64,000 nucleotides of DNA, taken from assembly GCA_964016885.1 (NCBI GenBank), contig OZ024743.1, positions 103,478,001 through 103,542,000 on the forward strand, in the 5' to 3' direction. Positions 641-62,831 of the stretch are shown here, piece by piece; within the stretch, counting starts at the first letter, position 1; every line of letters begins with the position of its first letter. A program made the position numbers and the translations under genes. The notes beneath the pieces were generated by a model, which worked only from the letters and a program-made list of their open reading frames with translations, did not search any database and had not been told where the DNA came from. The DNA comes from Eledone cirrhosa. Lineage: Eukaryota.

Positions 641-835
641 ATATTTAATATAGAAATGGCTTCTACTGGACTAGAACAGTTTCATTCAGGAAGTCCTGAT
701 GATTTCCCCCGAATGAAACAGTTCTAGTCCTGTAGAAGCCATTTCTATATTAAATATTTATACTCTGCTATGTATTGAGTACCTTACTTACTGTGGTTAC
801 CCCCGATTGAACCCGGGATAAACTTATATATATAT
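641..835. mobile_element. HHR repeat family A, inverted insertion in (TA)n
   Basis: Arm 641-687 is the reverse complement of 711-757. CTGATGA 696-702, GAAA 715-718, cag..ctg-TA. Other copies at 1721-1775 and 5921-6102. Confidence 0.75.
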
Positions 836-845
836 ACAGAGAGTA

Positions 846-956
846 AGAGAGAGAGAGAGAGAGAGAGAGAGAGAGAGAGAGAGAGAGAGAGAGAGAGAGA
901 GAGAGAGAGAGAGAGAGAGAGAGAGAGAGAGAGAGAGAGAGAGAGAGAGAGAGAGA
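846..956. repeat. (GA)n microsatellite
   Basis: Pure AG dinucleotide run. Confidence 0.98.
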
Positions 957-1830
957 TTCGGTCGATAAAATATGTACCTTCATTAGAGCTCGTGCAACCC
1001 AACCAGCTACAGCAATCTTGATCTTCCGCTGACTCAAGGAGAAAAGGGGTCGCAACTCGATGGGCACCTAAAAAGCTTAGTGAAAGCATAACATATTCTA
1101 ACAAGTCATACACGATTGCGAGTGACTGTTGTAGTAATAACATATGGGTGGAGTAATTTTGACGGAGCGTGATTTACCTGATGTATCAATGTCGAGTATG
1201 CGCCATGCGCCTGCTGTCTGCCACACACACGAAAGAAAGAAAGATAAATAAGTAAATAAATAAAGAACCATATAAATACATAAATAAATAAATGAATGAA
1301 TACTAAGCCAATACGACAATCTCTACGTGATACTCCTATTTGCTTTAAATAACTGCCAAAATTCAGCTTAAGCCGTTGATAAGTAAGGGACAAATTACAT
1401 AACGTGGTCGTAGATGCATGATGACGAGTTGGTCACTGCCTTTGATCAAGTATTTCCAAAATCATTGATCTAGGGTTAAACAATAACATCAACAGCAGAC
1501 ATAATTGTACCTATACACAAAAATATTAGTATTTATAAATGATATAAACAAGAGCATTGGTGGAAACTATAGTGTCAGTGGCGTCTGAGATTGAACATTA
1601 GAATCATTAAGAGCTCATCATTACCATGTCACCAGCACACACATATTAATATATGAGTATATAAATACACACGTATATATACAAATGTCCATATATATTT
1701 ATATAAACACACTCATATATATATTTAATATAGAAATAGCTTCTACAGGACTAGAACTGTTTCATTCGGAGGAAATATATACACTCATACACACTCATAT
1801 ATATATATATATATATATATATATATATAT

Positions 1831-2028
1831 AACGAAGGAAATGTTGTAAGGAACCAGATGGACCATAACGCACCAAAGTACTCAATACTTAGGGTAGTAG
1901 AGTGGGTAATAGGAACGAGTAGGACCCCGACGGCTGAGCGCCGTTTCGACGGCTAATTCTGGACTAGTTCAGAATTAGCCGTCGAAACGGCTTGAGCTCA
2001 GCTGTCGGGGTTCTAATTGTTCCTATTC
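1831..2028. mobile_element. HHR repeat family B, inverted insertion in (TA)n
   Basis: Hairpin centred near 1966; 3' half of HHR GAAA-cggct tgagctc agctg-TC. Same family at 26130-26262, 49723-49923 and 60837-61011. Confidence 0.75.
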
Positions 2029-2061
2029 ATATATATATATATGTGTGTGTGTGTGTGTGTG

Positions 2062-2797
2062 TATAAATATTTCGTATCTCCAGGGAAATACAATTTTAGG
2101 AAGCCGTAGCTATGCAAACACCCTCTGGTGATGTCCAGCAGAAGCAAGAGGAACAACCCTCTATGCATTTCAGGCTTAACTGGCCATCGTCAGGACGGTC
2201 TCTCCCACCACTTGCGACTGGTGAACTAGAAGACAGGCGAGAATATACAGTTTTCTCGTCTGTGTAAATGAGGTGATTAATCTCATTTGCATATGAAGCT
2301 GCATAAATTGGCTCAACTTATAATAGAAAAGGGCGTTTACCCCCCCCCCCACACACACACACACACACCGGTGTTTGCATAGCTACAGCTTCCTGATACT
2401 GTATTTCTTTGGAGATACGAAATATTTATACATATTTTATAAAGCTATCCTTGAAGCGCAATCCTATTTCTTTTCTATTATTAGTTGAGCCAAATTATGC
2501 AGCTTCATATGCAAATGAGATTAATCACCTCATTTACACAGACGAGAAAACTATATATTCTCGCCTGTCTTCTAGTCCAGCAGTCGCAAGTGGTGGGAGG
2601 GACCGTCCTGACGATGGCCAGTTAAGCCTGAAATGCATAGAACGTCGTCCCCCTTGCTTCTGCTGGACATCACCAGAGGGCGTTAGCCCCCGGGTGTTTG
2701 CATAGCTACGGCTTCCTTAAACCATATTTCTTTGGAGATACGAAATATTTATACATATTGTATAAATCTATGCTTGAAGCGAAATCCTATTTCTTTT
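2062..2797. mobile_element. Family C (~323-nt HHR monomer), inverted dimer 1
   Basis: Minus arm 2062-2340 with HHR core at 2187-2193. Plus arm 2369-2797 is ~1.3 monomers (gtgtttgcat at 2371 and 2694), with CTGACGA 2608-2614 and GAAA-TGCA-TA 2630-2639. Confidence 0.8.
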
Positions 2798-2822
2798 ATA
2801 TATATATATATATATATATATA

Positions 2823-2978
2823 TAACATTAATAAAAATACTGATGTTACATAAATCGTTTATTCATTATAATTATTTCAACGGTTCTCCCACGTAATCAA
2901 CATGTAATTCATACATTTCTTGTTGTTATGAGAACAGTATCCTGAGATGAAATTCGATTTTGTGATATGATGCCAGCA
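2823..2978 (-). repeat. ~155-bp segment duplicated at 3898-4051
   Basis: acattaataaaaat...cctgagatgaaattcga occurs twice, each time flanked by (TA)n. Confidence 0.85.
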
Positions 2979-3017
2979 TATATATATATATATATATATA
3001 TATATATATATATATAT

Positions 3018-60780: not shown

Positions 60781-60836
60781 ATATATATATATATATATAT
60801 ATATATATATATATATATATATATATATATATATAT

Positions 60837-61011
60837 AGGAACGAGACGGCTGAGCTCAAGCCGTTTCGACGGCTAATTGTGGACGCCGTCAAAACGGCTT
60901 GAGCTCAGCCGTCGGGGTCCTACTCGTTCCTATTACCCACTCTACTACCCTAAGTATTGAGTACTTTGGTGCGTTATGGTCCATCTGGTTCCTTACCACA
61001 TTTCCTTCGTT
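60837..61011. mobile_element. Family B inverted insertion in (TA)n
   Basis: Minus arm 60837-60884 and plus arm 60885-61011, ending ccacatttccttcgt-(TA)n. Confidence 0.8.
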
Positions 61012-61191
61012 ATATATATATATATATATATATATATATATATATATATATATATATATATATATATATATATATGTGTGTGTGTGTGTGTATATATATA
61101 TATATATATATATATATATGTATATATATATTGAGTACGCTGAAATATGACCGGTGCGGGCACTGTTAAATATGCTGGGTCCGTCAACTCC

Positions 61192-61380
61192 TTGCCAGTA
61201 TCGGTAGAGGGTCTGACGCCGTGCTTTGCAGCAAAGAGTTACGTCCCTTTATGGTCTGAGTTCAAATCCCGCCGAGGTTAACTTTGCCTTTCATCCTTAC
61301 GGGGTCGATAAAATAGAGTACCAGTAATGTACTGGAATAATTGCTGGCCTTGTGCCAATAGTAGAAACAATTATTATTAT
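61192..61380 (+). mobile_element. tRNA-derived SINE
   Basis: Same family, (ATT)n tail. Confidence 0.85.
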
Positions 61381-61907
61381 CTCACAACTAGCAGACTAAT
61401 GAGAGTAAGTTAAACAATTTTTCACTTTTTTATTGTTTTTGTTCAAGGAAAAACTTGAACCGTTAAGGTATTTTCTCTTGGTTATGTCAAAATTTATAAA
61501 ACAAACTTTGTATTTTATCTGATAAGCGCGTACCAAAGTCTTGGTACACTTGAAATATATATAATAGAATAAATATGGTTTTATAAATATAGTTTCCATT
61601 TATTTAATATCATTGTATATATATATATATATATATATATATAAACAGAAAAAATGAAACGAAATTTCATTTCCCACTCTTAGTACGGCTGTTACTTAAA
61701 TATAAGTAGGTACACGTACATACATATATGTATACAGACGTACAGTAGTATGTATATATATATACATACATGCACACATATATACATGTAGGTATGGATT
61801 CACCGAACATTTATTATAATGCTCGGTGTGTTTGTAAACAAACATCCCGTATTAAGCCGTAGTGTCTAGCAACCATCGTTGCTCCTTTGTTCAACACTGA
61901 CAAAGGA

Positions 61908-61950
61908 ACGCTGTACTAGTTTCAAGCTTATTAGCTATCGTCAGCAACGT
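61908..61950 (-). ncRNA. Intact minimal hammerhead ribozyme (family M)
   Basis: Exact reverse complement of 62563-62605. Confidence 0.9.
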
Positions 61951-62562
61951 ATACCTTCCTGTCAGATTGTTGAACGTCTGAAAGCATATACTTTCCTTAT
62001 GCATTTTAACGGCTGAGTAGCCCAATTTGCATATCGAGTGGGTTAATCGGCCGGGTGCACCGAAAACGATAAACAGAAAAAATGAAACGAAATTTCATTT
62101 CCCACTCTTAGTACGGCTGTTACTTAAATATAAGTATGTACACGTACATACATATATATATACATATATGTATGTACATGTACATACATATATGAACAAA
62201 CGAGCAACGATGGTTGCTAGACACTACGGCTTAATACGGGATGTTTATTTGCAAACACACCGAGCATTATAATAAATGTTTGGTGAATCCATACGTACAT
62301 GTATATATGTGTGCATGTATGTATACATATATACATACTACTTTACGTCTGTATACATATATGTATGTACGTGTACATACTTATATTTAAGTAACAGCCG
62401 TATTAAGAGTGGGAAATGAAATTTCGTTTCATTTTTTCCGTTTATCGTTTTCGGTGCACCCGGTCGATTAACCCACTCGATATGCAAATTGGGCTACTCA
62501 GCCGTTAATATGCATAAGGAAAGTATATGCTTTCAGACGTTCAAAATCTGGCAGGAATGTAT

Positions 62563-62605
62563 ACGTTGCTGACGATAGCTAATAAGCTTGAAACTAGTAC
62601 AGCGT
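62563..62605 (+). ncRNA. Intact minimal hammerhead ribozyme (family M)
   Basis: acgttg-CTGACGA-t agct aata agct t-GAAA-CTAG-TA-cagcgt. Confidence 0.9.
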
Positions 62606-62831
62606 TCCTTTGTCAGTGTTGAACAAACGAGCAACGATGGTTGCTAGACACTACGGCTTAATACGGGATGTTTGTTTACAAACACACCGATCATTATAAT
62701 ACGTGTTCGGTGAATCCATACGTACATGTATATATGTGTGCATGTATGTATATATATATATACACACTACTGTACGTCTGTATACATATATGTATGTACG
62801 TGTACATACTTATATATATATATATAGATAT

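Follow-up and report, generated by a model that had tools for sequence, protein, structure and literature searches.

Why are repeats that lie between TA tracts of the Eledone cirrhosa genome built from two inverted arms, head to head, with both 3' ends pointing outward? The question was raised by a window of 64 kb, the whole stretch of DNA analysed here, in which a first-pass annotation had noticed this layout in several repeat families and had linked it to Penelope-like elements (PLEs). The link is supported by open reading frames (ORFs), GIY-YIG remnants and hammerhead cores: families A, B, C, G, H, I, J and M consist of PLE ends, arranged head to head with their 3' ends outward. "Long" and "short" refer to the outer end at which an arm stops. 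The pertinent arms and elements of the window are the following.

645..824, family A insertion: minus short-ended arm and plus long-ended arm; hammerhead core 696-734 (+)
1725..1776 (-), family A: one short-ended arm alone, found by self-BLAST
1832..2027, family B stub: its long arm is minus and its short arm plus, and they join at the 5' hot spot
2063..2796, family C, first insertion: minus arm (core 2193-2162) and plus partial tandem (core 2608-2639); no ORF of at least 120 aa
3020..3835, family C, second insertion: minus partial tandem (unit ~323 bp; core 3239-3228) and plus arm (core 3642-3673)
5920..6097, family A insertion: the minus arm is long, the plus arm short
7239..9552 (+), family G element, 5'-truncated: broken GIY-YIG region, 3' UTR, hammerhead-like core 9397-9437, long end at TA
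11903..12643, family G insertion: two short ends, contrary to the long/short rule; beyond its right end lies an insertion that we take to be mariner-like
15129..15432, family H: minus short arm and plus arm; partial core 15261-15282; the end of the right arm enters a C-related repeat, not TA
25060..26124 (-), PLE of another family, 5'-truncated: CX4CX2C linker, GIY-YIG, its own hammerhead core 25104-25071
26125..26261 (+), family B: short-ended arm whose 5' end joins that of the preceding element
48788..49407, family I: partial tandem with an inverted arm; the core, CTGATGA, is at 49231 (+)
49423..49703, family J: minus arm, which carries a hammerhead (49499-49476), and plus arm with long overhang
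49724..49922, family B: arms not overlapping (distance from the long end: 63 to 0 nt for the long arm, 210 to 80 nt for the short arm); TATA-like box at 49836 and Inr-like TTAGTCC at 49863
57177..60779 (-), broken Hydra-type PLE of another family: RT and GIY-YIG, single-armed between TA tracts; 39% identity to family B over 146 aa
60838..61010, family B stub: minus short arm and plus long arm
61644..62810, family M: head-to-head partial tandems, unit ~428 bp; cores 61944-61914 (-) and 62569-62599 (+)

Orientation of the arms

The sense of the arms was determined independently of the first-pass calls. In family B, the ORF leads into the 3' UTR, and the B end lies on that strand too. In family G, GIY-YIG remnants at ~7950-8460 (+) lie upstream of the G end. 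A motif scan for hammerhead cores (CUGAnGA/CAGAAGA..GAAA..UH) set the sense of families A, C, G, J and M, the cores being full in A, C, J and M; families H and I have partial ones. A strict automated hammerhead test was positive in 8 of 98 segments, seven outward and one inward. Rfam reported for the whole window only sub-threshold noise of microsatellite or miRNA type, and no hammerhead, among the 150 of 224 matches listed; targeted scans yielded a single match, Hammerhead_1 in family J, which at 18 bits is below the cut-off of 34. The orientation therefore rests on the ORFs and the motif scans. Pfam missed four of five PLE fragments from the window and found GIY-YIG below cut-off in the fifth.

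Self-BLAST recovered the inverted pairs where the first-pass annotation had placed them. Combined with these pairs, the assignments put the left arm on the minus and the right arm on the plus strand in every listed case. Some cases deviate otherwise: the G insertion at 11903-12643 pairs short with short, the right end of H is not in TA, the B arm at 26125 adjoins a different PLE family, and A at 1725-1776 has a single arm. Beyond the window, two-orientation B insertions within 1,064 kb were all of the -/+ type (21/21; +/- none), and for one family B junction zone the genome contains 6,665 head-to-head against 2 tail-to-tail arrangements. The rule is not absolute; the inverted arm is absent in 15 of 60 anchored B insertions, which have one arm only.

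Two non-equivalent ends

Family B has two discrete ends, 80 nt apart, and each falls on an internal TAT. It had been stated that B stops at ttcctat in four insertions. Three of them indeed end at TTCC|TAT (26261, 49922 and, in minus orientation, 60838), while the one at 2027 ends 4-5 nt further (TTCCTATTC). The two ends are not combined at random. A long end is paired with a short one in 36 of 37 resolved B insertions: loci anchored on the long end had 16 short and 1 long far ends, and at those anchored on the short end all 20 far ends were long (Fisher p 1.3e-9). A set of B insertions chosen for its 133-nt arm was kept out of this count, and L160-L170 of that set were left unscored. The pairing is also seen in long, variable B insertions. 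Among 98 TA-touching inverted repeats of all families, 7 are symmetric and 91 have unequal ends. In 73 of the latter the overhang measures 25-175 nt, a length typical of the family; the other 18 are longer and complex. A MITE or another DNA transposon with terminal inverted repeats was rejected because of these unequal ends and a variable centre.

Other candidate sites within the element are hardly used. The TAT between the two B ends serves as an end in 21 cases, a GGTTCC look-alike in 10 and the long end in 19,257, although the anchors behind these numbers differ in length. In tandem copies of family B the sequence continues past the long end with TAT-CTAG into the ORF; in family G and one other family, the continuations are TAT and TATA. 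Of 66 anchored cases, 37 have a short end that overlaps the TA tract by at least 3 nt, against 11.5% in the null; 7 further cases are unanchored. The earlier view that the outer ends usually lie on an internal TA or TAT running into (TA)n is supported. The two B ends are fixed sites, and the arms are not equivalent.

The family B element

The source element of family B is a tandem unit of 3,568 bp with frameshifts. Its ORF encodes an RT (LYRDD) followed by a GIY-YIG-type region. It has 149 homologues of ~700 aa, one of them named as a predicted GIY-YIG endonuclease; in Pfam, RVT_1 was matched weakly (E 0.099) and the endonuclease part had no match. By structure family B is an EN+ PLE: partial tandems forming pLTRs, an inverted 5' copy and an optional tail are all present. 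Read by eye against section 11 of PMC8557442, the predicted protein carries Hydra-clade motifs, i.e., a CxCX5C linker (CNCPDRSIC), HSDKTG, CNLC and CKH, without CCHH and with one Cys within the GIY-YIG core. With the Hydra clade as described there it shares the C-terminal GIY-YIG, the linker, DKT, CxxC and CxH around E/N, and (TA)n targeting. In contrast to that clade, whose members are generally <3 kb, the unit is longer, has RWR (in RLRWR) instead of RWK and a degenerate hammerhead, in which GAAA-stem III-GUC is kept and TTGAGAAG stands at the expected CUGAnGA. Also the tail differs, with 80 nt against the published 30-40 bp.

The (TA)n target

Targeting of TA is near-exclusive. In family B, 19,257 long ends adjoin (TA)5, while CA, GA, GT and CT runs together account for 36 rows. 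Empty sites were searched for at 110 loci and five matches were obtained; three were uninformative, and TA was present in both of the others. According to the first-pass annotation, insertions into non-palindromic (CA)n or (GA)n should lack inverted arms. Of 12 B ends at CA or GA runs, the aligner still assigns two arms to 7, whose far end lies in TA, for which reason they look like altered TA tracts; the comparison is confounded by such compound tracts. The TA tracts at B ends have a median length of 32.5 nt, as against 16 for all tracts, a difference confounded by age and anchoring. A bolder idea is that the PLE RT may also lengthen TA tracts by stuttering on UAU.

Junctions and the 5' stop zone

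At the 5' side, 53 of 72 B arms stop 125-143 nt from the long end. This zone is the probable transcription start. B, A and one more family share a TATA-like box that precedes the junction hot spot by ~30 nt; among the matches listed, a fourth family has it at ~-20 and a fifth lacks it. The predicted 5' region does not fold any better than shuffled RNA (z 0.59).

The junctions of family B arise anew at each insertion. Their overlaps are mostly 0-5 nt, some contain inserted bases, and a hand count of the first 50 junctions listed revealed 25 distinct spacers. In 27 of 41 cases the best match of a short arm is its own long arm, where 7 would be expected. In a young B subfamily the arms are identical in 19/31 cases versus 0.62 for cross pairs, and arm identity is uninformative there. 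Two insertions (L206, L172) show jumps, resuming at d138-141. Cross-family junctions (26125; L202) were considered as evidence of two different RNPs; this remained unproven and was rejected, L202 being an insertion into a family M TA tract with a short target deletion.

How the arms may be made

We regard it as rather probable that both nicked strands prime at two start sites set by the protein, probably on one RNA, and that the cDNAs become end-joined. The evidence consists of fixed genomic copies throughout. The protein of the element would nick both target strands and choose the two sites, at one of which each 3' end would prime reverse transcription, and a UAU:ATA pairing of ~3 nt would set the register. 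Most events would begin near the 5' end of an ordinary mRNA, which starts probably with the A of TTAGTCC, 29 nt after TATTTAAA; both RTs would then run off, after ~138 and ~58 nt, and stubs of ~195 bp would result. Longer arms would stem from priming in a downstream pLTR. Overlapping arms would demand that the RNA is read twice, by strand displacement, or that a second RNA of the same source is used; to our knowledge, PLEs lack RNase H. Host end-joining would finally connect the two cDNA ends. Priming from both strands with 5'-to-5' joining, as the first-pass annotation had proposed, is supported.

The single-armed B insertions and the short-short pair of family G speak against this reading. 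So does the distribution of long-arm stops (n=36): 5 lie at <=81 and 6 at 82-124, and there is no pile-up at the short site, so that one RNA and two are not separable from the stops. Non-nested arms could also be due to central deletion of palindromes after insertion.

The rival that survives best is fold-back self-priming, a variant of ideas of Arkhipova 2013 and Craig 2021. The cDNA from the long site would fold at the 5' end of the RNA and be copied back, the endonuclease would resolve the product at the internal TAT, i.e., the short end, and later central deletions would blur the junction. It accounts for the long/short pairing, the similarity of the arms and their near-equal 5' ends at the hot spot. 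Self-priming has also been argued from junction palindromes (PMC3846280), and the tail has been attributed to endonuclease resolution (PMC8557442). We nevertheless consider it unlikely. In 10 of 36 B pairs the short arm extends past the long arm on the 5' side by at least 10 nt, 5 of 36 do not overlap, and the junctions of L185, L200, L203 and L209 have zero overlap and no loop. Moreover, Poseidon of Anolis carolinensis (PAc) starts directly on the RNA at both tail boundaries (PMC11167929).

The first-pass annotation had seen in the palindromic (TA)n cut a source of two equivalent primers, which would anneal to any UA-rich site of the RNA, the palindrome itself causing the inversion. The near-exclusive TA targeting, the microhomology and the uniform head-to-head orientation would agree with it; the neglect of the intervening TAT and of the GGTTCC look-alike, and the non-random pairing of ends, do not, and we give this version little credence. 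With two protein-set sites, the palindrome would supply an identical primer on both strands, and it would probably not be required for inversion. It is probably not the cause, because inverted pLTRs have been reported next to ordinary target duplications of 8-10 bp (PMC3846280); PAc, too, nicks both strands at ATT and extends them (PMC11167929).

That the ~195-bp stubs are non-autonomous, MITE-like or retrozyme-like units, made once and copied whole with their layout, is equally improbable: the modal length is strong within each family and 9 of 50 junctions share one spacer form, but the spacers are otherwise diverse, both arms of the stubs carry subfamily-specific words, the pairing extends to the long, variable insertions, and the unequal ends are unlike terminal inverted repeats.

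Relation to known retroelements

In L1 twin priming, two target 3' ends prime on the RNA at sites of which the second is variable, and the head-to-head product, with arms that do not overlap, is joined by short microhomology. The five non-overlapping B pairs have this layout. Unlike L1, family B uses fixed sites and a GIY-YIG enzyme, has no poly(A), and its arms overlap in 31/36 pairs. The process resembles L1 twin priming but is not the same, and an identity was rejected.

Among PLEs generally, Craig et al. 2021 (PMC8557442) describe 5'-truncated copies that stand inverted at the 5' end, and an often one-ended tail. They place the transcription start within the pLTR in Penelope and Chlamys-3 (section 10) and call the origin of inverted pLTRs and one-sided tails unresolved. 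In Adineta vaga Penelope, as here, head-to-head is the commonest inverted arrangement, the tail is on one inverted pLTR, and the pLTR contains TATA and Inr-like motifs (PMC3846280). Its target duplications are the ordinary ones mentioned above, unlike here, and self-priming on an antisense template was proposed by the authors.

For PAc, Frangieh et al. 2024 (PMC11167929) found in vitro that both strands are nicked and extended. The protein is predicted to be dimeric, uses uncleaved RNA and has two internal RNA start sites, in the region of pLTR and ORF start, that define the tail. PAc primes without homology, and its start sites do not differ between the strands, which counts against the reading preferred here. 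It starts in a stem-loop rich in AC that shares no homology with the target, whereas family B starts on TAT matching the target, which suggests that target-RNA microhomology differs among PLE clades. The inverted copies and the long/short pairing seen here have no account for PAc in the parts of PMC11167929 consulted.

Earlier work has already described inverted pLTRs, the one-ended tail and targeting of (TA)n. Added here are the non-equivalent arms, the TAT-registered ends 80 nt apart, the 5' stop zone and the junctions made anew; the sections of PMC8557442 consulted contain no pairing counts, no 5' hot spot and no TAT registers, and in the openly accessible literature no published statement of the long/short pairing model was found. 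The genome offers thousands of independent PLE products with countable rules. These weigh against the older self-priming model and, together with the in vitro findings of 2024 (both strands extended, two start sites), can be merged into one testable model. Tentatively, and with somewhat less than even confidence, we extend it: a dimeric, telomerase-related RT-endonuclease may routinely read one RNA twice from two fixed, UAU-registered sites, one per nicked strand. Such obligate asymmetric twin priming might be the general origin of the inverted pLTRs and one-sided tails of PLEs, and the stubs a fossil map of PLE transcription starts. For annotation it means that many short hairpin "unknown repeats" between TA tracts of such genomes can be labelled as PLE stubs, not as MITEs or miRNA-like hairpins.

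Orientation and structure of the insertions

The head-to-head pattern of Penelope-like element (PLE) ends in (TA)n is real. It belongs to a known kind of element with a known structure; what is new are its quantitative rules, which make an open mechanistic question testable. Published accounts describe an inverted 5' copy, a one-sided tail, insertion into (TA)n and a TSS within the pLTR (PMC8557442, PMC3846280). Our literature search yielded no account of the counted pairing rule, the dual TAT registers, the run-off hot spot or a unifying model; subscription papers, Repbase and supplements may hold them.

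The window has 37.5% GC and is rich in (TA)n; the host genome comprises 3.0 Gb. The window and 1,000 kb of extra contiguous sequence from five places (1,064 kb together) were analysed, as were anchored loci and pattern counts over the whole genome.

The first-pass annotation had described inverted pairs with the minus arm left and the plus arm right, and this is borne out. Masked self-BLAST of the window revealed inverted pairs at every coordinate claimed. With sense taken from ORFs (B and G), hammerhead cores (A, C, G, J and M) or partial cores (H and I), every listed window insertion has its minus arm left and its plus arm right. The 1,064-kb sample contains 21 B insertions with both orientations, all −/+, and 19 more with a single one. 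Genome-wide, the B hot-spot junction pattern is met 6,665 times head-to-head vs twice tail-to-tail. Exceptions are a G insertion with two short ends (11903), a right arm of H that continues into another repeat, a single-armed A (1725) and a B joined to a different PLE (26125). Two arrangements in the window are listed here:

25060-26261, minus/plus: two PLE families head-to-head, a GIY-YIG element whose motifs suggest a Neptune-like type, and a B arm; the junction may stem from a target deletion or from a mixed event.
6959-7074, minus: 27-bp stub between TA tracts, directly after a plus-strand 3' end and the reverse complement of the 3' end of the repeat 6751-6957; the sole tail-to-tail-looking pair noticed, its members separated by TA.

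The source of B is a 3,568-bp element, present as tandem copies on one contig (C14), whose pLTR and tail make up the family. The element's features appear to match the Hydra clade as described in PMC8557442, save for the RWR, the length and a degenerate hammerhead core. The head-to-head layout recurs across many families. Of 734 segments bounded by TA tracts, 139 contain an inverted repeat of at least 25 bp, a raw count without shuffle control; 98 of the 139 touch a TA tract. C (~323-bp unit; 2063-3835) and M (~428-bp unit; 61644-62810), inserted in the same layout, are partial tandems that carry hammerheads but no long ORFs; they resemble non-LTR retrozymes or non-autonomous PLEs.

Outer ends and target

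B has two discrete outer ends, the short one at GGTTCC/TAT and the long one 80 nt further, at CCTTCGT/TAT (slashes mark the ends). Both overlap the target by TAT, because tandem copies continue past the long end with TATCTAG into the ORF. Continuations of TAT and TATA are seen in G and one further family; the remaining 8 anchors tested had no shared continuation. TA microhomology at outer ends, as proposed earlier, is supported: across families, 37 of the 66 cases that could be anchored (7 could not) have a short-end overlap of at least 3 nt, vs 11.5% expected, and the median overlap is at least 3 in 17 of 30 families.

Genome-wide, (TA)5 is abutted by 19,257 long ends and by 1,566 short ends, the latter of one subfamily word. 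TAT alone is insufficient to define an end, since against these 19,257 the TAT between the two B ends is used 21 times and a GGTTCC look-alike 10 times. Non-palindromic targets had been expected to lack inverted arms. Ends at CA, GA, GT or CT runs are rare (only 36 rows); of the 12 B ends examined there, 7 nevertheless have two arms, the far one ending in TA.

At empty sites, TA is present in both informative cases of 110; the targets, therefore, likely pre-exist. Comparison of loci L171 and L183:2935 gives ~25 TA bases on each side when filled and ~11 at the related empty site. TA tracts at B ends have a median of 32.5 nt vs 16 for all tracts. A common SINE of ~200 bp (window 11531-11748 and nine further places), which presumably resembles octopus SINEs, also often adjoins TA tracts.

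Pairing of long and short ends

On contig C1, 60 loci were classified: the first 30 anchored at a long end and the first 30 anchored at a short one. The former comprise 16 long+short and 1 long+long, the latter 20 short+long and 0 short+short (Fisher p 1.3e-9); the other outcomes are 1 odd end, 15 single-armed loci, 4 with two arms whose far end lies beyond the locus and 3 without assigned far end. Of the 98 tract-touching inverted repeats across families, 7 are symmetric, 73 have an overhang of 25-175 nt and 18 are longer and complex. The short arm finds its best match in its own partner in 27 of 41 cases vs 7 expected. The two arms thus usually share one source; copying or gene conversion would lead to such matches as well. 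The young B subfamily is uninformative on this match.

Stop zone and junctions

Measured from the long end, 53 of 72 arms terminate at 125-143 nt; 14 fall short of this zone and 5 run past it. An initiator-like word, TTAGTCC, marks the end of the zone, its A standing 29 nt after TATTTAAA. Template jumps at L206 and L172 resume there. Among the output listed, A and one other family likewise have a TATA-like box ~30 nt ahead of the hot spot; a fourth has it at ~-20, a fifth lacks it, and a single junction hot spot is not seen in G or H. Junctions are individual (25 distinct spacers in the first 50 listed), with overlaps mostly of 0-5 nt and inserted bases at some. One arm at L206:808-1525 (short-anchor orientation; C1, ~27.009 Mb) consists of three tandem 257-nt units. 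Each starts at the 5' hot spot, crosses the tail and takes in the ORF region's first 116 nt, an arrangement that may result from template jumping or from a small circular RNA.

Mechanism

We moderately favour that both target strands are nicked and that each 3' end would prime reverse transcription, at two start sites set by protein, probably on one RNA. Priming would usually occur near the mRNA 5' end, and end-joining would then link the cDNAs. PAc, the Poseidon PLE of Anolis carolinensis, is a biochemical precedent: its account reports nicking and extension of both strands, a predicted dimer and two internal starts that define the tail (PMC11167929). Its starts, as described there, have no TAT register, unlike those at both B ends. 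No accumulation of long-arm stops is seen at the short site, a result compatible with one RNA and with two.

That both arms arise by fold-back copying is unlikely: the short arm reaches at least 10 nt beyond the long one in 10 of 36 pairs (5 pairs reversed), and 5 of 36 do not overlap, as at window 49724. Central deletions at a later time could produce a similar picture, and for this reason fold-back keeps some weight. The palindrome of (TA)n, earlier held to cause the inversion by offering two equivalent primers, is probably incidental, given the inverted pLTRs of Adineta vaga flanked by ordinary 8-10 bp duplications (PMC3846280).

Other repeats in the window

35941-37624, plus: single-armed GIY-YIG PLE fragment (ORF 36236-36913), TA-flanked; a 44-bp direct repeat (35991-36034 = 37582-37624) looks like a long target duplication.
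12644-13940: transposase remnant (13041-13460, minus), presumably Tc1/mariner-like, at TA adjoining the right arm of G.
17570-20610: fragment of a helicase-like ORF (17635-18108, minus) within a repeat whose CTAG-CAGA ends adjoin TA tracts and which we assume to be Helitron/Helentron-like; related ends at 9857, 39233, 45209 and 48640.
26565-34800: two diverged, facing non-LTR retroelement remnants (28895-30079 vs 32361-31155, 66% identity) that include fragments resembling an endonuclease and an RT.
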